From: Candidatus Methanomethylicia archaeon
GTDB lineage: Archaea; Thermoproteota; Methanomethylicia; Nezhaarchaeales; B40-G2
DNA length: 27,435 bases
Assembly: GCA_029259155.1 (NCBI GenBank)
Contig: JAPDJI010000031.1
Location: 1 to 27,435, forward strand
Direction: 5' to 3'
Part shown: in pieces, positions 2,026 through 17,148 of the stretch
Position numbering within the stretch: position 1 is the first letter of the stretch
Layout: every line of letters begins with the position of its first letter
Position numbers and translations under genes: made by a program
The notes under the pieces: model-generated
What the model saw: only the letters and a program-made list of their open reading frames with translations
Database searches by the model: none
Told to the model about the DNA's origin: nothing

Positions 2026-3849
2026 TTGTGCGGCATTTTCGGATGTACGCTCATTAATGGCTCCGCAGCCATCATCATACATGAAGGGCTAAAGAAGTTA
2101 GAATATAGAGGATATGACTCAGCCGGGCTAGCTACCGTCCACGAAGGGAAACTTTACGTTAAGAAGGGTAAAGGTAAGATAGACGAGATACATAGAGTCC
2201 TGAACTTTGACGACCTTCCGGGACATGTAGGTATAGGGCATACGCGCTGGGCTACGCATGGCGCCCCCTCTCCTCAAAACGCACACCCTCACTCTGATTG
2301 TCATGGTTTGGTTGCGGTGGTCCACAATGGTATTATAGAGAACTTCCATCAGTTGAAGGAGGAGCTCGAAGCTAAAGGCCATGTATTCAAGTCCAGGACC
2401 GACACCGAGGTTATTTGCCACCTCGTGGAGGAAGGGCTTGAGGAAGGACTAAGCTTAAAGGAAGCTGTTAAACGGGCTCTTCTGAAGCTTTCAGGCTCCT
2501 TTGCTGTGGCTGTTGTTTCTCCGCTTGAACCAGATAAAATAGTATGTGCAAGGAAGGAATGTCCTTTAGTCTTAGGGCTTGGAGAAAATGGAACCTTTTT
2601 CTCCTCGGATCTACCAGCCTTGTTATGGTTAACCAATAAGGCTGTTTTCCTCTACGACGGCGACTTAGCGGTGATATCGCCTCAAGGGTATTCGGTGGAA
2701 CGTATAGAGAACGGGGAACCTGTCGATAGAGCAGTGGAGCTTGTCTCTTGGAGCCCCGAGCAAGCCGAGAAGGGTGGTTTCCCTCACTTCATGTTAAAAG
2801 AGATCTATGAACAGCCTCAAGCCGTTAGGAACACTCTACGTGCACCAAGGTCTTACTTAGAGAACATGTGTAGCGTCATAGAGGGGTCTTCGAAGCTATA
2901 CCTTGTAGCTTGCGGTACTTCCTACCATGCATGTCTAGCTGGAAGTTACATGCTTTCCCGCTTAGCAGCCATAGATGCTAAACCAATCTTGGCCTCGGAG
3001 TTTAGTGAATGGTGTGGAAACTTAATTGATGAAAAGACCACGCTGTTGGCATTATCTCAATCTGGCGAGACGGCTGATACCTTAGATGCGATTAAAATGG
3101 CTTTAGAAAAAGGTGCCAAGGTATTATCCATAACCAACGTCATGGGCTCCTCCATAACTAGGCTTTCACACGTCTATATTGGTACGCAAGCAGGGCCTGA
3201 GGTAGGTGTTGCAGCAACCAAGACTTTTACTTCTCAGCTAGCTATCTTAGCTCAGCTATCGTTGATGCTGGGTCTTCGCCGAGGCATTTTAGGAGCGGAG
3301 GAACATAGAGCCTTACAGGAAGCTCTCTTAAATGTGCCTAAGGTTATGGACTTCTGCCTGGGCAACGTGGGACAGCTGGTAAAGTCTATCGCGTTAAGGT
3401 ATGCCTACGCCCCTAGCTTCTACTTCCTTAGCAGAGGTGTCAATGTAGCTACTGCGCTTGAAGGGGCCTTAAAGCTTAAGGAGATCAGCTATATACATGC
3501 TGAAGGTTATCCTGCTGGCGAGTCTAAGCATGGACCCATCGCTCTCATAGAGGAAGGTTTTCCATGCGTCTTCATAGTACCTAAAGGCGAAGTTCGAGGG
3601 AGGCTCCTAGGAAACGTTATGGAGATGAAAACGAGGGGCGCAAGCATAATATCTGTGGCTGAAGAGGATGATGAAGAAGTTAAAGCCTTCTCGCAGGACT
3701 TCATAGGAGTACCCTCAGGCTTACCTGAAGTATTGTCACCTATCGTTTACGTTGTACCCCTACAGCTTCTAGCTTATTACGCAGCGGTGGCTAGAGGTAA
3801 CGACCCAGATAAGCCTCGTAACTTAGCTAAGTCTGTAACTGTGACCTAG
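2026..3849 (+). CDS. glmS: Glutamine--fructose-6-phosphate aminotransferase (isomerizing)
   Basis: TTG-TGC-GGC-ATT at 2026 gives M-CGIFG, placing the catalytic Ntn Cys at the N-terminus. Also LEYRGYDSAG, GHTRWATHG, HNGIIEN, SQSGETAD and PRNLAKSVTV. The GTG at 1984 is too far upstream. Confidence 0.97.
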   Translation: MCGIFGCTLINGSAAIIIHEGLKKLEYRGYDSAGLATVHEGKLYVKKGKGKIDEIHRVLNFDDLPGHVGIGHTRWATHGAPSPQNAHPHSDCHGLVAVVHNGIIENFHQLKEELEAKGHVFKSRTDTEVICHLVEEGLEEGLSLKEAVKRALLKLSGSFAVAVVSPLEPDKIVCARKECPLVLGLGENGTFFSSDLPALLWLTNKAVFLYDGDLAVISPQGYSVERIENGEPVDRAVELVSWSPEQAEKGGFPHFMLKEIYEQPQAVRNTLRAPRSYLENMCSVIEGSSKLYLVACGTSYHACLAGSYMLSRLAAIDAKPILASEFSEWCGNLIDEKTTLLALSQSGETADTLDAIKMALEKGAKVLSITNVMGSSITRLSHVYIGTQAGPEVGVAATKTFTSQLAILAQLSLMLGLRRGILGAEEHRALQEALLNVPKVMDFCLGNVGQLVKSIALRYAYAPSFYFLSRGVNVATALEGALKLKEISYIHAEGYPAGESKHGPIALIEEGFPCVFIVPKGEVRGRLLGNVMEMKTRGASIISVAEEDDEEVKAFSQDFIGVPSGLPEVLSPIVYVVPLQLLAYYAAVARGNDPDKPRNLAKSVTVT

Positions 3850-3886
3850 ACATTAATCGCTAGACTTAATCAACATCAAGGTTTTA

Positions 3887-4576
3887 CTACGTTGTGAGGA
3901 TAGCTAAGCTCCTTATCAAGTCAGCGGTATCTTCACATCTGTCGGCCACGTTCTCCATGCTATCCACCACGTCCTTTAGACACACAAGCCTAGAAGGACC
4001 GAGCTCATCACCGATAAGCAAAATTCTATGTAAAAGTTCCCTCCTCACATCGTCAATGTTCTCTTCAAGCTCTTCAACGCGATCGGCTTTCTCTAAGGCT
4101 TTCTTAGGATTATCTACAAGCTCCTTTACCGCCTGGGACGTTTCATCAACTATTTCAGTCAATCTATCTGCTATATCCTTAAGCCTCCTCAAGATCTCCT
4201 CGTCTTTGATCTTTAAACACATGAATGTTATCCTCGCTCCGGCTCCCTTAGCGTTTGAGGCTATATCATCCATGGTTAAGAGTAGCCTCGTTATTTCATC
4301 CCTATCTATTGGATGAAAGACTCCTACGGAAAGCTCCTTTATAATGTTCCTCTTTAAATCGTCAGCCTCCTTCTCGGCCTTAAAAATCTCATCGAAGCTT
4401 TTCTTAACTTCCCCTACGTTACTTTCACAGAAGGCATAGACCGTCTTCTTAAGGGCCTTCACGGTCACCACTACTTTCTCCATATGTTTTTCAGCCATCT
4501 CAAGGATCTTGCGCTCTCTACGTCTGCCGAGCCAAGCAAGGAAGTTTGTTGTTTTAAGGTTTGACAAGCTTATCAT
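3887..4576 (-). CDS. DUF47 / PhoU-like phosphate transport regulator family protein
   Basis: All-helical protein with duplicated ExxAD / ExxID motifs (EKEADDLKR, EENIDDVRR) and ENVADRCEDTAD. Confidence 0.88.
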   Translation of the reverse strand: MISLSNLKTTNFLAWLGRRRERKILEMAEKHMEKVVVTVKALKKTVYAFCESNVGEVKKSFDEIFKAEKEADDLKRNIIKELSVGVFHPIDRDEITRLLLTMDDIASNAKGAGARITFMCLKIKDEEILRRLKDIADRLTEIVDETSQAVKELVDNPKKALEKADRVEELEENIDDVRRELLHRILLIGDELGPSRLVCLKDVVDSMENVADRCEDTADLIRSLAILTT

Positions 4577-4894
4577 CCACCCTTGACTCTAATATGAAGT
4601 AGCGAAGGGGTTAAGTCTACGTCCGACAGAAGAATTTAAGTTTAACGGGCTAACATTTTCGACCTAAAATCTAATACGGACAACTCTTACTTTCCCCTCC
4701 AACATTTGTAGTGTGTTTTCCCTCATATAGGAGCATGGAGGATGAGCTGGAAGATTATTGTATTTGAGATGCCTACTTAAAGTGATGATTTCTTCTTGAC
4801 ATTTTAAGCTTCCTGAATATTCCTAGGGAATTAGTGCTTGTCGTGTAATCCATACATGGATCAGCTGAAAGCTTCCGTGCCCATAAATTTCTTT

Positions 4895-5899
4895 TTAGCC
4901 TCCTAGGTCTACGATATCCATTACCTTAGGACCTGTGCCTATGAGGGTTACTTTAACCTTGAGTTTATCCTCCACCTCCTCGATGAACCTCAAGGCTTCT
5001 TTACTGAGCTGCTCCTCGGATCTAGCTCCCTCTATTTCGGGAAAGAGGACATCTAGCTTGGTTATTGCCAGCTGCGTGGCTCCATTAAGTATGATAGCTC
5101 TCTTAGCGAGCTCAAAGTTGAAAGGAGCTGCTCTACGCTTCCTACCGGTAACAGTGGCCACTTCGCTCCACCCTCTCCTTTCGGCTTCCTCTTCTGGGAG
5201 CTCGCCGGGAAGAGGGCCACCGCCCACCCTCGTGACGTACGACTTGAAGACCACTAGAACTTCGTCAACCTTCGTTGGCCCTACGCCAACCTCGCTGCAA
5301 ACTGCAGCAGCTGTGGTGTCTCTAGCTGTGACGTAGGGGTAGGTTCCATGATAAAGCGAGAGGAAACAGCCTTGGGTGCCTTCAAGTAGAACATTCTTTC
5401 CTGAAGACAAGTATTTCTCTACTTCACCTGCCACATCGACCAAGTAGGGCTTAAGTTCTTCCACGTCCTTCGCTAACTTAGCTACCCTCTTCACCCTATC
5501 TTCTATGGCAGGTCCTACACCTTGTCCTGTAGTCTGCACCTTCCCAGCTAGGTAAGCGTTCTTTCGATCCCTCTCGATATGGTCTTCCTCTATGATGGAG
5601 CACTGCGGATCTAAGCCTACTCTTCCTTCAGTGCCTGTCAACTTAACTTCGTTTAGGAAGATGGTAGGGTTTACGTTAGCTCCTGCACCTATAAGTAGCC
5701 TACATCCTCCGTAGGTGAAGGCAGTAGACACCATCCTAAGCTTGATAACTCTACCATCCTCAAGGATCACGGTGTGGCCTGCGTTAACTGAGCCTACTCT
5801 TACTGCAAGGTCTAACCTGTTCTTTAGGGCTAGGTAAGAGATTATCTTTCCCTTTCCTTCGTCGCCGAAGAACCCGCCTACGACCACGGTCAGTGGCAT
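4895..5899 (-). CDS. purA: Adenylosuccinate synthetase (short archaeal type)
   Basis: GDEGKGK P-loop, NAGHT, EGTQG, GTYPYVT, TRVGGGP, TVTGRKRR, TKLD; 334 aa. Confidence 0.97.
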   Translation of the reverse strand: MPLTVVVGGFFGDEGKGKIISYLALKNRLDLAVRVGSVNAGHTVILEDGRVIKLRMVSTAFTYGGCRLLIGAGANVNPTIFLNEVKLTGTEGRVGLDPQCSIIEEDHIERDRKNAYLAGKVQTTGQGVGPAIEDRVKRVAKLAKDVEELKPYLVDVAGEVEKYLSSGKNVLLEGTQGCFLSLYHGTYPYVTARDTTAAAVCSEVGVGPTKVDEVLVVFKSYVTRVGGGPLPGELPEEEAERRGWSEVATVTGRKRRAAPFNFELAKRAIILNGATQLAITKLDVLFPEIEGARSEEQLSKEALRFIEEVEDKLKVKVTLIGTGPKVMDIVDLGG

Positions 5900-7793: not shown

Positions 7794-8525
7794 TTGAAGG
7801 AGATGCTGAGGATAGCTGCTTCCTCCGATATTCATAGCCCCAAGAACCTCGACCTCTTTAGAGCCTCGGCCCACCGTTTAAAGGAGGCCGACCTCCTCAT
7901 TCTGGCTGGCGACCTTATCTATAAAGGCCGGGTCTCTGAGCTCGACCATGTCATAGAGGCTGTTACAGCTCATTTTTCCGGCCCTGTGGTGGCCTGCTTC
8001 GGCAATGAGGAGTTCGACGAAGTTAAGGAGGAGCTTAAAGATCGTTCACGTGGAGTTATAACTTGGCTCGACGATGAGGCTCTTACGCTAAACATCAAGG
8101 GCTACATCGTCGGCCTTATAGGTACGAGAGGCTGCCTCGATCAACCTACTTCTTGGCAGCTTAGAAACATACCTGGCATCAGGGAGCTCTACGAGAAAAG
8201 AGTGGGAACTGTGGATAGGTTGTTGGCTGAGCTGAAGGGAGACTTCAGGATACTCTTCTCACATTATGCTCTATTGCGTGAAACTTTGAAGGGGGAGAAC
8301 CCTAGGATTTGGCCTCAACTTGGGTGTTCTAGGATGATTGATGTTCTTAAACGTAGGAGGCCCTCCGTAGCTATCCACGGCCATGTGCACAACGGTAAGT
8401 TGTTAAAGACCAAGATCGATGGTACGCTAGTTCTCAACGTATCCCTGCCTGCTACCAATGAAATAGTGTTCTTCACTCTTCCCTCATATGAGGAAGGCCA
8501 GCCACCACTAACTTCCTTCTTCTAG
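7794..8525 (+). CDS. Calcineurin-like metallophosphoesterase with a C-terminal PIP-box
   Basis: SDIH, AGDL, GNEE, SHY and HGHVH metal-binding motifs; ends in QPPLTSFF. Confidence 0.88.
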   Translation: MKEMLRIAASSDIHSPKNLDLFRASAHRLKEADLLILAGDLIYKGRVSELDHVIEAVTAHFSGPVVACFGNEEFDEVKEELKDRSRGVITWLDDEALTLNIKGYIVGLIGTRGCLDQPTSWQLRNIPGIRELYEKRVGTVDRLLAELKGDFRILFSHYALLRETLKGENPRIWPQLGCSRMIDVLKRRRPSVAIHGHVHNGKLLKTKIDGTLVLNVSLPATNEIVFFTLPSYEEGQPPLTSFF

Positions 8526-8782
8526 CCACCAGCGACTGGCGGGAACAACGAGATGGTGTCCCCTTCCTTTAAGACGGTCTTGTTCCCTTCTAGGCCTTCA
8601 ATATCCTTCCCATTCACTAAAACCCTACACTCGGTCAAATCTTCTGCTAAGGCTTCTCCTCGTCGGCTAACCAACAGCTTCAATAAGTCCTCTACGCAAG
8701 CTCTTTCATCAACTTCAGCTTCCTCGTCTTTAACTCCTAGTTTTTCTCTTAGGGTAGCGTAGTACTCCACCTTAACCTTCAA
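8522..8782 (-). CDS. moaD: MoaD/SAMP-like ubiquitin-fold sulfur carrier protein
   Basis: MKVKVEYYATLRE, VLVNG, and C-terminal FPPVAGG di-glycine; divergent from a tungstopterin enzyme gene. Confidence 0.88.
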   Translation of the reverse strand: MKVKVEYYATLREKLGVKDEEAEVDERACVEDLLKLLVSRRGEALAEDLTECRVLVNGKDIEGLEGNKTVLKEGDTISLFPPVAGG

Positions 8783-8854
8783 ATTACCGCCACCCTTAAA
8801 CCCTCTAGCCTCCTAGCCTATTAATCGAGCTGAGGTATCGGCTGGAGGAGAGAG

Positions 8855-11359
8855 TTGGCAGGATACACGGGTAAGGTATTGCGGGTTGATCTCTCCACAC
8901 ATTCCCTAAGTGTAGAGGAACTTAACTGGAAGGTGGCCCATGACTTCGTAGGTGGCAGAGGATATGCAGCTAAGGTGCTTTATGATGAACTCGAACCAGG
9001 CGTTGACCCGCTAAGCCCTGACAATAAGCTAGTGTTTATGACAGGTCCCCTAACCGGTACCTTAGCACCTACATCGGGAAGATTCTGTGTATCCTCTAAA
9101 TCTCCTCTCACCAATACTCTTTTTGACGCGCAGTCAGGGGGGTTCTTTGGTCCTCAGCTTAAGAGGGCTGGCTTCGACGGGATCATAGTGGAGGGCTCAA
9201 GCGACAAGCCGGTATATCTTCTGGTACGTGAAGGGCAGGCTGAGCTCCACGAAGCTTCAGCTTTATGGGGCAAGACAACTCACGACACCGAGGCGTTGCT
9301 TAGACAGAAACATGAAGGTGCAAGGATAGCATGCATAGGCCCAGCGGGAGAGAACCTAGTCAGGATGGCGTGCATAGTAAATGACTTGCATAGAGCAGCT
9401 GGTAGAGGCGGTTTAGGAGCTGCCATGGGAGCTAAGAGACTAAAGGCCATCGTTGTGCAAGGAAACCTAAACATTCATCCAGCCAATCCTTACGCGTTTA
9501 AAAGGGAGGTTGAAAAAGCCTTAAAGGTACTTAGAGGACACCCTCTAACAGGTGATGGTCTAGGAAGGTATGGAACAGCTATCTTAACCCACCTTGTAAA
9601 TAAAGCAGGTCTATTGCCTGTAAGGAATTTTCAGTCGAGCTTCTTTAGTGATGCTGAGCTTGTTAGCGGAGAGTACATGAAGGAGAAGATCGTGGTAGGA
9701 AGGAAGGCTTGCTATGCTTGCCCTATAGCTTGTGGGAGGGTTTCTAAGATACAAGAGCCTCCCTACGGGCCGTTAGACACGGAGGGTCCTGAATATGAGA
9801 CTCTGTGGGCTTTTGGACCTAATTGCGGGGTCTCCGATATCGAAGCTATAGCTTACCTCAATGACCTATGCAACAAGCTAGGGTTAGACACCATCTCCAT
9901 GGGGTCTACCATGGCTTTAGCCATAGAGCTCTACGAGCGTGGCCTCTTGAAGAATGAGGCCTCGGAGGGGCTACATCTACGATGGGGCGACCCTTCATTG
10001 CTAATAAGGCTCGTGGAGATGACGGCTTATAGAAGCGGACTGGGCAACCTCTTGGCTGAGGGTTCTGCGAGGCTCGCCAAGATGGTGGGTGGAGGTGCTG
10101 AGGACCTAGCGATCCACGTGAAGGGTCTTGAGCTACCAGCCTATGACCCTAGAGGGGTTAAAGGCATGGCCTTAGCTTACGCTACTTCTAACCGTGGAGG
10201 TTGCCACTTAAGAGCATACATGGTCATGTCAGAGCTATTCAGCATACCTCGCTACTTGGACCCTGAGAGCTACGAAGGTAAAGCAGAGCTGGTTAAGAGG
10301 ATGCAGGACATATACGCTGTGATAGACTCTCTGATAATGTGTAAGTTCACTTCATTCGCCTTCTTCAGCACCCTCAGGTACGAGCCTACCATCTACGCTA
10401 GGCTGCTCACCACTGCTACGGGGATATACATGGATGAAGAAGAATTTCTGAGGGTTGGTGAGCGTATCTTTAATCTTGAACGACTCTTCAACATACGTGA
10501 GGGCTTCTCGAGAAGTGACGACACCCTGCCTGGGAGGCTCCTTAAGGAGCCCTTACCTGACGGGCCTTCAAGGGGACAGACCATAAATCTTGAGAGGCTG
10601 CTGGATGAATACTATGCGATTAGAGGATGGGATTACTTAGGTAGACCATCTGAAAAGAAGCTTGCGAGCCTAAACCTACCTCCACTCTATACGGGTCCTA
10701 GGCTTCAGGTAGCTATCGATGAAAGGTATCTGAGAGATGCCCTAAACATAGCTGAGAAGGCGTATAGAGGGGGTGCACAGATCCTCGAAGTTGGCACCCC
10801 GCTCATAAAGAGTGAGGGGCTTAAAGCGGTCAAGGAATTTAGAAGACGTTTTCCAGGAGCATTAATAGTGGCTGACCTGAAAACCATGGATACAGGCTGG
10901 CTGGAAGTGGAGCTAGCAGCTGAGGCTGGAGCAGATATAGTATGTGTCTTAGGGGTAAGCGATGACTACACGATCAAGGATGCAGTGGGTGCAGCGAGTA
11001 AGTATGGGGTTAAGGTCATGTGCGACTTAATGAACGTCCCTAACCCTATTGAGCGGGCGCAGCAGGTGGAGAGGTTAGGTGTTGACTACATCTGTTTACA
11101 TACAGGAATCTCAGCCCAGATGAGGGAGCGGGAGGTGGATAGGAGGATCGAGGTGATCCGGGAGATTGTTAATGCCGTTAAGGTACCTGTAGCAGTGGCT
11201 GGAGGGATACGAGCTGAGATGATACCTAAGCTTATTGAGGTTGGATGTCAAGTAATAATCGTTGGAGGCGCTATAACGAAGGCTTCCGACCCCTCTGAGG
11301 CTACGCGTAACATGTTGAGGATTATTGAGCAGGCATGGAGAAAGGCTAGAGAATCTTAA
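8855..11359 (+). CDS. Fusion of aldehyde:ferredoxin oxidoreductase (AOR/WOR family, aa ~1-610) and 3-hexulose-6-phosphate synthase (HPS/HxlA family, aa ~615-834)
   Basis: AOR motifs: GGRG, RAAGRGGLGAAMGAKRLKAI, CYACPIAC, EGPEYET, GLDTIS, YDPRG, NRGGCH, DSLIMCKF. HPS motifs from nt 10697: LQVAID, EVGTPLIKSEG, ADLKTMDTG, HTG, VAGGI, VGGAIT. SD GGAGG precedes the TTG and there is no stop between the domains. Confidence 0.93.
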   Translation: MAGYTGKVLRVDLSTHSLSVEELNWKVAHDFVGGRGYAAKVLYDELEPGVDPLSPDNKLVFMTGPLTGTLAPTSGRFCVSSKSPLTNTLFDAQSGGFFGPQLKRAGFDGIIVEGSSDKPVYLLVREGQAELHEASALWGKTTHDTEALLRQKHEGARIACIGPAGENLVRMACIVNDLHRAAGRGGLGAAMGAKRLKAIVVQGNLNIHPANPYAFKREVEKALKVLRGHPLTGDGLGRYGTAILTHLVNKAGLLPVRNFQSSFFSDAELVSGEYMKEKIVVGRKACYACPIACGRVSKIQEPPYGPLDTEGPEYETLWAFGPNCGVSDIEAIAYLNDLCNKLGLDTISMGSTMALAIELYERGLLKNEASEGLHLRWGDPSLLIRLVEMTAYRSGLGNLLAEGSARLAKMVGGGAEDLAIHVKGLELPAYDPRGVKGMALAYATSNRGGCHLRAYMVMSELFSIPRYLDPESYEGKAELVKRMQDIYAVIDSLIMCKFTSFAFFSTLRYEPTIYARLLTTATGIYMDEEEFLRVGERIFNLERLFNIREGFSRSDDTLPGRLLKEPLPDGPSRGQTINLERLLDEYYAIRGWDYLGRPSEKKLASLNLPPLYTGPRLQVAIDERYLRDALNIAEKAYRGGAQILEVGTPLIKSEGLKAVKEFRRRFPGALIVADLKTMDTGWLEVELAAEAGADIVCVLGVSDDYTIKDAVGAASKYGVKVMCDLMNVPNPIERAQQVERLGVDYICLHTGISAQMREREVDRRIEVIREIVNAVKVPVAVAGGIRAEMIPKLIEVGCQVIIVGGAITKASDPSEATRNMLRIIEQAWRKARES

Positions 11360-13440: not shown

Positions 13441-14202
13441 TTGGAGATCGTTTTTCTCACCTTAATAGCTTTCATTGTAGGCTCGTTTTCCTCTATGCTT
13501 GGTGTAGGAGGGGGTTTCATCTATGTCCCCTTCCTACACTTGATGTTGTCTTTACCTCTAGGATTGGCGGTAGGGTCTTCCAAAGTGGCGGTCATGTTTA
13601 CAGCGTTATCGGCCTCGCTATCTTACTTACGTAAGGGCCTGGTTAAGCTTAAGGTCTGTGCTTTAATGCTTTCAGCCTCTATTCCAGGTACTATACTGGG
13701 AGTATACCTCATCGATTTCATTGATCCTAAGCCTGTAAAGGTGATCTTTAGCATCGTGGCCATATATGCCAGCATTCAGATGATGGGCTTAGGACGTCGA
13801 GTCTTCAAGGTGAAAGCTTCGCGTAAGCTTCCTCTTTCTCTACCTTTTTCTTTTGCGGCTGGCTTGATAGCTGGCTTGACGGGTATCGGAGGAGGCTTCC
13901 TCTTTACGCCTATTTTAAACCTTGTAGTTGGGTTATCCATGCACTTCTCGGTGGCTTCCTCTATGTTCCTGATATTTTTCACTTCCCTCGCAGCCTCAAT
14001 CAACCATTTTCGGTTAGGACATGTACACCTATTCTACGCTGCTCCGCTTGTAGCTGGCGTCTTGTTTGGAGGCTTTATGGGAGCTAAGATCGTAGTGAAG
14101 GTTGAGGAAAGAAAACTTAAACAGGCCTTCTCCTTTGTGCTTCTCTTCGTGTCCTTACTAATGCTTCTCAGCTCCTTAGACTTGGTTTTAATGCTTCCAT
14201 AA
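13441..14202 (+). CDS. TauE/SafE (TSUP) family membrane transporter
   Basis: About 8 hydrophobic segments with duplicated GVGGG / GIGGG motifs followed by P. Confidence 0.9.
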   Translation: MEIVFLTLIAFIVGSFSSMLGVGGGFIYVPFLHLMLSLPLGLAVGSSKVAVMFTALSASLSYLRKGLVKLKVCALMLSASIPGTILGVYLIDFIDPKPVKVIFSIVAIYASIQMMGLGRRVFKVKASRKLPLSLPFSFAAGLIAGLTGIGGGFLFTPILNLVVGLSMHFSVASSMFLIFFTSLAASINHFRLGHVHLFYAAPLVAGVLFGGFMGAKIVVKVEERKLKQAFSFVLLFVSLLMLLSSLDLVLMLP

Positions 14203-14236
14203 CCTTAAAGTTTAGGCTGGCTATCTTTAGGATTGA

Positions 14237-15115
14237 ATGAGATTAGCTGAAGCAGTGAGGGCTCTAAAGCCGAGCGACGTAAATGTATTGAGAGCGTTAG
14301 CAAAGGCTTCACGCAGCTACCGCTACGTCCCTCTAGATGTCCTACAGGAAATGCTACGCGTTTCCCCTTCCGTCCTCGAGAAGAGGCTTTCGTTCCTTCA
14401 CAGGCTAGGGTTGATTAGGAGGTGGATAGGCCAATATAGAGGCTATGAGCTTAAATCCATAGGTCTTGACGCTTTAGCTCTTTATACCCTTTCGAGGAGG
14501 GGTTTCATCGAAGCCTTAGGCCCTAAGTTAGGAGTTGGAAAGGAGGCTGAAGTTTACGAAGCTATCACGCCTAGTGGCGAGAGAGTGGCAGTAAAGTTTC
14601 ATAGAGCTGGGCGTAGAAGCTTTAAGCATGTAAGGAAGGTTAGGACCTACTTAGCCGGCGTGAAAGGCTCTGTGAAGACAGTTGCTCCATTGATAGCTGC
14701 TAAGAGGGAATTTGAGGCTCTTGAGCTCACTCACCATGAAGGAATAGCGGTCCCCAGACCTATAGTCAGGGTGAGACATGCTGTTGTAACGAGCTTCATA
14801 GAAGGGGAGCTTCTCTATATGTGTAGAGAGCTTCCCAATCCTTCCGGCCTGCTTTCAACGATACTGGATAACGTGGTTCAAGCTTATAGGAAGGCTGGGG
14901 TTATACATGGTGATTTAAGCGAATATAACGTCGTAGTGACTCCAAGCCTATCTCCTCTAATAATAGATTGGCCTCAATGGGTTCCTTCAAGCCACCCCTT
15001 AGCTTTTAAGCTCCTGATCAGGGACATCGAATATGTAGCCTCCTTTTTTAGGAGGAGGTTTAACGTAATGTTTGACTTGTCTGAGCTCTATAAGAAGCTG
15101 GGCCAAGAGGTGTAG
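14237..15115 (+). CDS. rio2: RIO2-type serine kinase/ATPase (wHTH + RIO domain)
   Basis: N-terminal wHTH (YRYVP...GYELKSIGLDALAL), GVGKEAEVY, VKFHR, IHGDLSEYN, IIDWPQ. Confidence 0.93.
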   Translation: MRLAEAVRALKPSDVNVLRALAKASRSYRYVPLDVLQEMLRVSPSVLEKRLSFLHRLGLIRRWIGQYRGYELKSIGLDALALYTLSRRGFIEALGPKLGVGKEAEVYEAITPSGERVAVKFHRAGRRSFKHVRKVRTYLAGVKGSVKTVAPLIAAKREFEALELTHHEGIAVPRPIVRVRHAVVTSFIEGELLYMCRELPNPSGLLSTILDNVVQAYRKAGVIHGDLSEYNVVVTPSLSPLIIDWPQWVPSSHPLAFKLLIRDIEYVASFFRRRFNVMFDLSELYKKLGQEV

Positions 15116-15117
15116 GC

Positions 15118-17148
15118 ATGGCGGAGCAGGGATGCATCGTTGGTGTGGATATCGATCCTGGCAGCAGTCCGCTTTCCTCCAAGGCTCCTCGTTTCTCTAT
15201 GGCTGTGCTGAGCTCCAACGGCTCATTGCTATCTAAAGCTGAGGGTGTAGGGCTTCGAAGCTTAATTAGGAGGCTTTGGAGGCTTAAGCCGACCATACTT
15301 GCCGTGGACAACATATACGAGATAGCTAAGGACTTTAAAGACCTAGTACGCCTCCTGCGTACGCTACCTGAAGGACTTAAACTTGTTCAAGTAACTGGAA
15401 CCCCCCGTGACCCTAAACCTTTAACTGAAGTTGCGGCCTCCTACGGCCTTAAGATACCGGCAAAACCTACACCTCTACAAAGCGCAATCGCTGTAGCTAA
15501 ACTAGCTCTAATGGGAGCAGGCTTTGAAGTAAAGGTCTTTGAGCCTGAGACTAGGATAGTGATCTCTAGGGCGAGGAGTTATGGTGCTGGAGGTATGAGC
15601 TTTGACCGCTTTAAGAGAGATGCTAGGTCGCTTGTCTTACAGGCTACGCGTGAGCTCTGCGAGGAGCTTAGATCGAGAGGGTTGGACTACGATCTTTTTA
15701 CGAGAGGGTCTCGGAGAGGGTTTGATAGAAGCTTAGTAGTGGTGTATGCTCCCAAAGGAATGTTAAGAGGGGCGGTTAAATCTATTGAGGAGAAGGGGGT
15801 GAAGGTAAAGGTCTTTGAACCCTCCTCCGAGGAAATTCGTTTCATTCCGAGGGAAGGCTCTGACCTTATTCGGGCTAAACAGGGGAGGTACCTTATTATC
15901 GGTGTTGATCCTGGAATGGTTACAGGCTTAGCTATACTGGACCTGCGTGGAAGGCCTTTACTGTTGGTCAGTAGGCGTTCAATGGATAGACTGTCTATAT
16001 CTCGTCTTATCCTGGACTACGGGTCCCCCCTCATAGTAGCTTCCGACGTGAATCCTCCTCCAACTTTAGTAGAGAAACTTTCATCGATGCTGCGGGTTAT
16101 CCTCCATTATCCTTCATATTCGCTCACGGTCGAGGAGAAACGTAGATTAACCATGGAGGCCGAGGAGAACTATGGCATTAGGGTTAAGGATAGTCATCAA
16201 AGAGACGCGTTAGCTGCTGCTTTAAAGGCCTATATGCACTACAAAAATAAGCTTGAACAGGTAGAGGCTCACCTAAGGGCATCTGGCTTAAAAGTACCTC
16301 TTGACGAAGCCAAAGCTCTGGTGATTAAAGGCCTTAGTATACAAGAAGCTTTGAGGAGGCTGGTTAAGACGGAGGCAGAGGAGCCTCCTTCACCGCCTTT
16401 TACGCCATCTACATCAAGCAAGGTCAAGGAGGAGATTAAGGCTTTACAGGAGAAGCTGTTGAAACAACAGAACTATATAGATAAGCTTGAAGCTGAACGT
16501 GAACGTCTCTTAAACAGGGTCGAGGAGTTAACGAACAAGGTTGAAGAACTTGAACAAGCATTATCTAGGCAGCGGAGTGAACAGGCCTTAAAGATTAAGG
16601 AGACCATGGAGGTCAAGAAGCTTGAGGCTCAGGTCGAGAGCCTCAAGGCCTTATTATCAAAGATAGAGGCTGAACTCTCCTCCTTGCAGGATGAGGTAGC
16701 TAAGTGGAAGGAGTTTACAATAAACTCCTTAAGAGGGATTTATAGGCTGATAAAACCTATCAACGCTCTTACACCTTCAGGCGTAGCTGAGGCCGTTAAG
16801 GAATACTCTATAGGAAGAGGCGACTTGGTCCTGATACGTGATGCGGCTAGCGGAAATAGAGAAGCTGCTGAAGCTTTAGTTAAGTTACGTGTAGCTGGAG
16901 TAATTTCGTTAACTCCCATACCTCTAAGCGCTAAGGAAGTATTCATTAAAGGCTCTCTGCCGTTTCTCGAGGAACCTGAGCTTGAAGTTAACTGGCTTAG
17001 AGGGCTTCCTTTCCTGCCTGCTGAGCCGCTGGATAGATTGATGAAGCAAGCTAAGGAAAAAGTCGAAGAGGAAAGCAGAAGGCTGGCTAGGTCTTCGCTA
17101 TCTAAGGTTCTTGAAGAGTATAGGCAAGAACGCTTGACGAAAACTTGA
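15118..17148 (+). CDS. DUF460-family protein: RNase H-like domains plus a long coiled coil
   Basis: IVGVDIDPG, ILAVDNIYE, IIGVDPGMVTGLAILDL, IVASDVNP, HQRDALAAA, heptad-rich region at aa ~435-535, and terminal LEEYRQER. Confidence 0.85.
   Translation: MAEQGCIVGVDIDPGSSPLSSKAPRFSMAVLSSNGSLLSKAEGVGLRSLIRRLWRLKPTILAVDNIYEIAKDFKDLVRLLRTLPEGLKLVQVTGTPRDPKPLTEVAASYGLKIPAKPTPLQSAIAVAKLALMGAGFEVKVFEPETRIVISRARSYGAGGMSFDRFKRDARSLVLQATRELCEELRSRGLDYDLFTRGSRRGFDRSLVVVYAPKGMLRGAVKSIEEKGVKVKVFEPSSEEIRFIPREGSDLIRAKQGRYLIIGVDPGMVTGLAILDLRGRPLLLVSRRSMDRLSISRLILDYGSPLIVASDVNPPPTLVEKLSSMLRVILHYPSYSLTVEEKRRLTMEAEENYGIRVKDSHQRDALAAALKAYMHYKNKLEQVEAHLRASGLKVPLDEAKALVIKGLSIQEALRRLVKTEAEEPPSPPFTPSTSSKVKEEIKALQEKLLKQQNYIDKLEAERERLLNRVEELTNKVEELEQALSRQRSEQALKIKETMEVKKLEAQVESLKALLSKIEAELSSLQDEVAKWKEFTINSLRGIYRLIKPINALTPSGVAEAVKEYSIGRGDLVLIRDAASGNREAAEALVKLRVAGVISLTPIPLSAKEVFIKGSLPFLEEPELEVNWLRGLPFLPAEPLDRLMKQAKEKVEEESRRLARSSLSKVLEEYRQERLTKT

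Follow-up and report, generated by a model that had tools for sequence, protein, structure and literature searches.

An archaeal fusion of an AOR-family oxidoreductase with 3-hexulose-6-phosphate synthase is conserved and may couple pentose synthesis to formaldehyde oxidation

[quoted passage not shown] This AOR-HPS protein is a conserved, so far undescribed fusion of two well-known enzyme families, and belongs to a type, HPS with a formaldehyde-handling partner, that is already known. Many archaea make pentoses by running the ribulose monophosphate (RuMP) pathway backward, which produces one formaldehyde per pentose. On comparative and structural evidence, the fusion probably serves this reverse RuMP pentose synthesis, with the formaldehyde being oxidized on the enzyme to formate and reduced ferredoxin.

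The gene occupies positions 8855-11359 of the plus strand as a single frame of 834 aa, with a TTG start and a stop at 11357-11359. The open reading frame list and the translation agree on this frame, no stop interrupts the junction, and GGAGG is present at 8844-8848, six bases 5′ of the TTG. An earlier note on this DNA had described such an uninterrupted frame, and all the motifs that it named were recovered upon translation, namely, CYACPIAC (residues 286-293), EYET (313-316), GCH (449-451), and MCKF (495-498) in the AOR part, LPPLYTG (608-614) in the linker, and GTPLIK (647-652), DLKTMD (674-679), AGGI, and VGGAIT in the HPS part. Pfam divided the protein into AFOR_N, AFOR_C, and an OMPdecase barrel (residues 615-819, 7.1e-36), the last of which places the start of the HPS part at nt 10697, where the same note had put it. 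The parts of the gene are as follows.

8855..11359, plus strand: whole AOR-HPS fusion gene, 834 aa (open reading frame list and translation).
8870..9463, plus strand: AFOR_N domain, residues 6-203 (Pfam PF02730, 2.9e-83).
9509..10678, plus strand: AFOR_C, domains 2 and 3, residues 219-608, with E313, H451, and the predicted pterin-binding stretches (Pfam PF01314, 3.4e-153; model TM 0.97 to 1aor).
9710..9733, plus strand: CxxCxxxC (C286, C289, C293), three presumed [4Fe-4S] ligands, invariant in the 53 aligned fusions.
10340-10342, plus strand: C496, presumed fourth cluster Cys (translation).
10352..10384, plus strand: insertion particular to the fused domains, directly behind the fourth Cys, residues ~500-510 (alignment of fused and plain AORs).
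10679..10696, plus strand: joint PPLYTG, residues 609-614 (Pfam and structure alignments; pLDDT ~89-90).
10697..11356, plus strand: HPS domain, residues 615-834 (TIGR03128, 210.8 bits against a cut-off of 200; 231 bits to 9lj9).
10874..10891, plus strand: D674-x-K676-x-x-D679 of the HPS active site, invariant in the 53 fusions (aligned to KGPDC and HPS structures).

Membership of the N-terminal half in the AOR family is clear from its scores against the Pfam gathering cut-offs (278.9 bits versus 29.8 for AFOR_N and 510.8 versus 27 for AFOR_C). Alignment to 1aor recovered C286, C289, C293, C496, E313, and H451, each conserved in at least 97% of 143 sequences (75 fused and 68 plain AORs). We take these residues, following the 1AOR literature, to be the cluster ligands and the catalytic Glu and His. 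The modeled fold superimposes on 1aor_A with a TM of 0.97 and an rmsd of 1.7, and this half is predicted to carry a tungstopterin site and a [4Fe-4S] cluster. Its best matches among solved structures are the AORs 9mqx (619 bits, 48% identity), 1aor (598 bits, 47%), 9g7j (567 bits, 44%), and 8c0z (547 bits, 46%), to which the model has a TM of 0.93-0.97. On the target length, TM reaches 0.96-0.97 for the matches at 47-48% identity. The formaldehyde oxidoreductase (FOR) of Pyrococcus furiosus, 1b25, follows at 346 bits and 36% identity with a TM of 0.91. As judged from sequence comparison, the oxidoreductase half is therefore of the AOR type and not of the FOR type to which it had been likened. 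The four stand-alone AORs, which include P. furiosus 1AOR, have the cluster residues, catalytic residues, and fold in common with it but lack a C-terminal barrel. The fused domains branch apart from plain AORs and have extra residues behind the fourth cluster Cys. Within this insertion, F504 and T506 lie opposite gaps in 68/68 plain AORs, and E510 is found in 100% of fused versus 3% of plain domains; at a 90%/10% threshold, this one insertion and one residue are all that separate the two groups.

The C-terminal barrel scored 210.8 bits over residues 617-823 (214.8 bits in the genome scan) with TIGR03128 (RuMP_HxlA, an NCBIfam equivalog-domain model with a cut-off of 200), whereas the two NCBIfam models for KGPDC/UlaD gave 101.9 bits versus 250 and 83.7 bits versus 294, in keeping with the assignment to HPS rather than KGPDC made in the earlier note. 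The metal and catalytic residues expected of an OMPDC-suprafamily barrel (E645, D674, K676, D679, and H749) do not vary among the 53 aligned fusions. By alignment and according to the entry titles, D724, I752, and A782 are HPS-type residues at positions that distinguish HPS from KGPDC, namely, those altered in the KGPDC E112D/R139V/T169A variants solved with ribulose-5-phosphate. The closest named relatives are the HPS/PHI proteins of the Thermococcales Thermococcus and Palaeococcus (55-58% identity), and the solved HPS/PHI 9lj9 is matched with 231 bits. By these sequence criteria, the barrel is a genuine 3-hexulose-6-phosphate synthase. Neither of two known fusions accounts for the whole protein. 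No Fae (PF08714) match is present in the protein and the Fae-HPS model PRK13307 reached 167.9 versus 274, over the HPS part only. The HPS-PHI model NF041755 reached 219.3 versus 500, again over the HPS part only, and the chain has no SIS/PHI domain.

The joint between the two halves is very short. The AOR fold could be aligned to 1aor through residue 611, and barrel strand 1 begins at residue 616, which corresponds to residue 2 of 3ajx, leaving approximately six residues between the two folds; this joint is kept in 53/53 aligned fusions. A full-length AlphaFold2 model built on the alignment of these 53 sequences had a mean pLDDT of 91.4 and a pTM of 0.90. Since the joint is also well modeled, the model suggests that the two halves are packed in a fixed arrangement. 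In this superfamily, the active site of HPS is formed at the interface of a dimer. A complex prediction run without controls on the AOR part (residues 1-608) and the HPS part (residues 614-834) as separate chains scored 0.00, which has no bearing either way.

An artefact of assembly or gene calling that fused two genes is already refuted. Some database entries do consist of the HPS part alone (231-234 aa; P0124 and P0125), as this explanation would have it, but the contig carrying P0125 holds a continuous frame of 850 aa (L013:5956-8505), and the fusion has thus been split or misnamed in some annotations. Moreover, a 1110-nt contig from sequencing run X6, a run outside those flagged as possible origins of the DNA, spans positions 10300-11010 with two differences and no gaps, and so bridges nt 10650-10750, the interval that the earlier note had wanted checked. 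The whole stretch is covered by run X1, from which the DNA may have come. GC content is even across the junction (0.47-0.54), and 59 protein clusters of 803-859 aa as well as dozens of genomes carry an equal frame; two separate genes in relatives or reads, which the earlier note had named as grounds for rejecting the fusion, were thus not what we found. Public records name the protein after either half, and some give the barrel alone as a short protein. Three such records of 231-234 aa (P0124, P0125, and P0122), labeled "DUF561 domain-containing" or hypothetical, begin inside the joint and contain only the HPS part. Two short stretches, 10599-10633 and 10863-10896, are common to unrelated contigs in all four runs compared; as they coincide with the highly conserved AOR C-terminus and the DLKTMD region, relatives present in these samples are their probable origin.

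When protein clusters were searched with residues 590-834 as the query, among proteins 458-1460 aa long, 120 clusters were listed, of which 67 have the AFOR_N, AFOR_C, and OMPdecase/HPS architecture (59 of 803-859 aa and 8 shorter fragments). A search for this architecture had been proposed in the earlier note, and the fusion proves to have been retained across great evolutionary distances. By source name, the clusters come, among others, from Nezhaarchaeota/Nezhaarchaeales, Thermoprotei, Methanomethylicaceae, Hodarchaeota, Promethearchaeota, and Thermoplasmata. Full-length matches with continuous frames were also found in named species genomes of Methanomethylicota, Methanosuratincola, Thermoprotei, Hodarchaeota, and Hadarchaeia and in bins labeled Bathyarchaeia and Nanohalarchaeota. 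A library of proteins clustered at 50% identity added little breadth: of its 150 best matches, just two (P0025, 832 aa, and P0243, 600 aa) align from the AOR side across the joint, and a 992-aa match is confined to the barrel.

We searched 401 genomes of the phylum of the window for frames joining an AOR end to the barrel. About 40 of 62 genomes of its class have the fused form. It is present in 4/4 genomes of the window's own family, in 10/10 genomes of the sister family in the same order (one broken by a contig end), and in 26/32 genomes of a family that holds Methanosuratincola-like sequences (f4; 25 as frames no shorter than 795 aa and one truncated), with the HPS part only in one further f4 genome. 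A few other families also have it, and two further families of the phylum carry more divergent fusions of 823-831 aa. In the Asgard phylum to which the Hodarchaeota genome belongs, 18 of 301 sampled genomes have the fusion, 17 as a joined frame and one in two pieces, and most of the remaining genomes have HPS fused to an RraA-like domain. In the genome with the divided fusion (G649), the C-terminal region lies in two pieces on the same strand (C1:1043480-1043872 and 1050305-1050721) about 6.4 kb apart, which suggests that the gene was interrupted by an insertion.

To place the fused AOR domains in their family, as the earlier note had proposed, we built a tree that combined 75 fused domains with the four AOR paralogues of this genome and with 68 plain AORs, those of greatest similarity in species genomes. 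Fragments, sequences with X, exact duplicates, and any further copy of the window protein were excluded. All 75 fused domains fell on one side of a branch and the 72 plain ones on the other (FastTree, SH-like 99), a thinned IQ-TREE run gave an equal split (31 fused versus 35 plain; SH-aLRT 98), and the divergent fusions nested inside the fused clade. This topology is consistent with a single origin of the fusion. The HPS-domain tree (149 rows, with 15 of 57 HPS-PHI and 36 of 73 HPS-RraA rows kept) placed the fused HPS domains in three groups and neither confirms nor rejects a single origin, as its backbone is weakly supported.

Several variants of the architecture were observed along the way. 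In a 998-aa form from the bin labeled Nanohalarchaeota (L021:425-3418), with P0242 (992 aa) as another example, an additional stretch of ~190 residues separates the AOR part (10-596) from the barrel (787-996). As two OMPdecase stretches were detected by Pfam, this form may contain a second, degenerate barrel. P0038 and P0041 (968-970 aa) combine two or three OMPdecase stretches and a SIS domain in one chain, and P0132 and P0135 (393-395 aa) are tandem barrels nested among the Asgard-type fused HPS domains.

The distribution of other formaldehyde-related genes in the class offers a view of the role of the fusion. The counts describe the 62-genome sample and are not a hypothesis test, since relatives are not independent. 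No Fae was found in f4 (0/32) or in the window's own family (0/4). In the sister family, 8/10 genomes have a stand-alone Fae of 174-210 aa, and in three other families, 8 genomes have Fae-HPS fusions of 413-448 aa, with AOR-HPS in none of the 7 of these that were searched. Among the class genomes compared, AOR-HPS and Fae-HPS fusions never occur in one genome. PHI was detected in 57/62 class genomes and in 35/35 high-quality ones, and in 24/32 f4 genomes, two closed genomes included, no HPS-like match other than the fusion reached E<=1e-20. Transketolase N-terminal domains were found in 0/4 genomes of the own family, 1/10 of the sister family, and 19/32 of f4. Beyond the class, double-SIS PHI-like genes lie beside the fusion in Hodarchaeota and Hadarchaeia loci, with RuMP_HxlB as their best family at 143 and 122 bits, below its cut-off of 160. 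The Hodarchaeota cluster (L019:1118-5783) comprises an 837-aa fusion, a ThiS/MoaD-like gene (3616-3912), a very divergent OMPdecase-like protein of 229 aa (3931-4617), and the PHI-like gene on the opposite strand (4629-5783). In the Hadarchaeia locus, the PHI-like protein (404 aa; L025:3220-4431) is encoded immediately 3′ of a divergent AOR-HPS fusion.

The genome that contains the window (1.55 Mb in 47 contigs, 94% complete) encodes a separate PHI on contig C13 (189 bits versus a cut-off of 160) and gave no match to Fae at this completeness. The earlier note had asked whether the genome has PHI and lacks Fae and a stand-alone HPS; the first two points held, but a second HPS exists, fused to an RraA-like domain (P0239, 437 aa). 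Glucose-6-phosphate dehydrogenase, transketolase, and transaldolase were not found in this genome, in which reverse RuMP is thus the only pentose route found. Among enzymes of C1 metabolism, four molybdopterin-enzyme candidates fell below the formate dehydrogenase alpha-subunit cut-off, the best of them at 366.6 versus 666 and equally PhsA-like, and neither Fhs nor McrA was found in the host genome. One of the four candidates is FwdB/D, a 580-aa protein (L121; G000:C1:500-2242) with an FwdD-like region at 5-123 and FwdB at 152-571 (590 bits versus a cut-off of 327.8). Since the genome encodes FwdB/D, the organism is probably not free of methanofuran/methanopterin chemistry. Another formate-dehydrogenase-like molybdopterin enzyme lies in two pieces (L119; G000:C22:581-2594), and its N-terminal piece (2349-2594) has one in-frame TGA, which could be a selenocysteine codon or a break.

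We propose that, in the pentose-forming direction, the separate PHI would isomerize fructose-6-phosphate to hexulose-6-phosphate, which the HPS half would cleave to ribulose-5-phosphate and formaldehyde. The AOR half, about six residues away, would then oxidize the formaldehyde to formate and pass two electrons via its [4Fe-4S] cluster to ferredoxin. The formate/formaldehyde couple lies below ferredoxin and the HPS equilibrium favors condensation, so that oxidation on the spot would both detoxify the formaldehyde on site and pull the cleavage toward pentose synthesis. The net reaction would convert fructose-6-phosphate to ribulose-5-phosphate, formate, and two reduced ferredoxins, paralleling the oxidative pentose phosphate pathway but linked to ferredoxin. 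The formate may feed formate-dependent purine enzymes, for which the host genome offers two candidates: a PurT-like gene, and a PurP-like (DUF1297) gene, with PurP above its Pfam cut-off, located ~2.6 kb from the second HPS gene on the same minus strand (C3:56120-56734 and C3:59313-60050). The earlier note had called the enzyme a methanopterin-independent analogue of Fae-HPS. The analogy is strengthened by the mutual exclusion of the two fusions in the class genomes compared, while the FwdB/D of the host makes it probable that the organism itself is not methanopterin-independent.

Several observations weigh against this proposal. The AOR half is nearest to broad-spectrum AORs and not to formaldehyde oxidoreductase, so that formaldehyde is suggested as its substrate by the partner domain only. 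The genome has four other full AOR paralogues, one of them FOR-like (L008; 492.7 bits to 1b25 versus 399 to 1aor), and this one and the three others could handle formaldehyde without the fusion. As the second HPS is present, the HPS of the fusion need not be the housekeeping one in this organism, and the absences listed above rest on a 94%-complete genome. Among possible takers of the formate, neither an enzyme reaching the formate dehydrogenase cut-off nor Fhs was found in the host genome. Across the clade, AOR-HPS and Fae are not strictly alternatives, given the eight sister-family genomes that have both, and the idea of a sole pentose route fails because of the transketolase N-terminal domains in f4.

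The resemblance to broad-spectrum AORs, 1aor and 9mqx being the best structural and sequence matches, could also mean that the AOR half keeps a broad role on aldehydes from amino-acid or sugar fermentation, with the HPS link being regulatory or structural, or with the barrel using another pair of aldehyde and sugar phosphate. The single insertion and single residue that distinguish fused from plain domains would suit such a role. However, the barrel exceeds the cut-off of the HPS equivalog model and bears residues typical of HPS, the AOR domains of the fusions make up a clade of their own that carries a specific insertion near the cluster and pterin region, and the PHI-like neighbors and the exclusion of Fae-HPS tie the fusion to RuMP chemistry; we consider this alternative quite improbable. 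Slightly less improbable, though still doubtful, is a formaldehyde-stress module in which both halves would act in parallel on free formaldehyde, HPS fixing it and AOR oxidizing it, such that the fusion would provide co-expression only and no hand-over. Passages of three papers (PMC8065059, PMC9723716, and PMC11291895) propose RuMP enzymes and AORs each as formaldehyde detoxifiers, and the fusion does stand beside a second HPS in the host genome and a stand-alone Fae in the sister family. Yet co-expression alone needs no six-residue joint kept in every aligned member, the many f4 genomes with PHI and the fusion as their sole HPS-like match point to a biosynthetic role, and the exclusion of Fae-HPS agrees with a partner that uses what HPS itself produces. 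On present sequence evidence, both alternatives appear less well supported than oxidation coupled to pentose synthesis.

The same enzyme could also work mainly in the reductive direction, the AOR half reducing formate to formaldehyde with reduced ferredoxin and the HPS half trapping it on ribulose-5-phosphate, for formate assimilation or to bring salvaged pentoses into glycolysis as fructose-6-phosphate. Acid reduction by AOR-family enzymes is known where the aldehyde is drawn off, and condensation is the favorable direction of HPS. The shortness of the joint and the confident modeling of the protein as one body would both lend themselves to trapping, and regeneration of the acceptor is conceivable in the f4 genomes with transketolase domains. 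Acid reduction by ferredoxin is uphill, however, and HPS must at least sometimes run toward pentoses in genomes where no other pentose route was found. In the host genome, the absence of transketolase and transaldolase matches means that an RuMP cycle could not regenerate its ribulose-5-phosphate acceptor; transketolase is likewise missing from the own family and nearly so from the sister family. The formate-assimilation idea of the earlier note is thereby weakened in its cyclic form, which is unlikely in this organism, and a mainly reductive enzyme seems unlikely overall. A broader version of the oxidative proposal, to which we also give little credence, would have an internal path joining the two sites and a reversible, ferredoxin-coupled formate/hexulose-6-phosphate module. 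This module would be oxidative in most hosts, as an "oxidative RuMP shunt" supplying ribose precursors, reduced ferredoxin, and formate for purine C2 and C8, and potentially reductive, assimilating formate, where transketolase exists.

In the window, the fusion gene lies between purA and pyrG. Its neighbors include purA, a diphthamide-synthase gene, an F420-type oxidoreductase, a metallophosphoesterase, the convergent pyrG, and the following divergent gene.

8522..8782, minus strand: MoaD/ThiS-like small protein, 86 aa, with a C-terminal GG (Pfam ThiS, 6.7e-18).

A MoaD-like gene adjoins the fusion in 9 of 12 fused loci. It was rejected as a mark specific to the fusion: such a gene also adjoins 14 of 68 plain AOR genes and hence accompanies the AOR family in general. 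The MoaD/ThiS-like protein is a probable cofactor-maturation accessory of AOR-family genes, and its position is only circumstantial with regard to a tungsten or molybdenum bis-pterin, the predicted cofactor of the fusion. Comparison of window positions 13441-17148 with Methanomethylicota loci (L013, L014, and L016) showed that a DUF460 gene (15118-17148) and pyrG also lie a few kb from the fusion there; some local gene order is common across the class. Scans for sigma-70 promoters and terminators gave no more sites in the window than in shuffled sequences, and such models do not suit archaea.

Compared with known systems, AOR-HPS most resembles the Fae-HPS of methanogens (PRK13307), in which a formaldehyde-taking partner is likewise joined N-terminally to HPS and which occurs in relatives of the host. 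The Methanosarcina protein has reportedly been characterized biochemically. The partner in Fae-HPS is a small hydro-lyase that joins formaldehyde to tetrahydromethanopterin without redox chemistry, whereas that of AOR-HPS is a metallo-oxidoreductase of ~610 aa that would yield formate and reduced ferredoxin. The HPS-PHI of Thermococcales (NF041755; 9lj9), the closest named relative of the HPS half, is reported to function in reverse-RuMP pentose synthesis (work by Orita in 2006); its C-terminal SIS-domain partner is the next enzyme of the pathway, not a formaldehyde sink, and PHI is a separate gene in the host organism. HPS-RraA (PRK07028), present in the host genome and common in the sampled Asgard phylum, has a C-terminal RraA/aldolase-like domain with no redox center, whereas the partner in AOR-HPS is N-terminal and is predicted to have a redox cluster. 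FOR of P. furiosus (1B25) oxidizes formaldehyde in vitro and has its family and fold in common with the AOR half, but is more distant, and a FOR-like paralogue is encoded elsewhere in the host genome. The earlier note knew of no characterized AOR-HPS fusion, and our search of open full-text literature agrees, as no description was found in main texts (subscription journals and supplements lay outside the search, and supplements may list the gene). The passages available from PMC7143981, PMC4725937, PMC6946796, and PMC10547907 make no mention of it. Reports on metagenome-assembled genomes (PMC11291895, PMC9723716, and PMC8065059) propose, in the passages available, that an unlinked AOR oxidizes formaldehyde in organisms with RuMP enzymes.

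Taken together, these results bear on formaldehyde disposal in archaea without Fae-HPS, for which only suggestions invoking an unlinked AOR were available until now. The conserved fusion is direct genomic evidence for a link between AOR and the RuMP pathway and points to a specific AOR clade as a likely formaldehyde oxidizer. For annotation, it is relevant that public records name the protein by one half, by the other, or as two split entries. The idea can be tested at the bench, since the fusion occurs in cultured Methanosuratincola relatives and in Asgard archaea. A reversible enzyme, if real, would offer a formate route without methanopterin, folate, or ATP at the C1 step in its reductive mode and would be of interest for the design of synthetic formate assimilation. 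If the oxidative proposal is true, these archaea would possess an equivalent of the oxidative pentose phosphate pathway that yields reduced ferredoxin, and AOR-HPS would be the first known case of an AOR-family enzyme built into one chain with a sugar-phosphate lyase.

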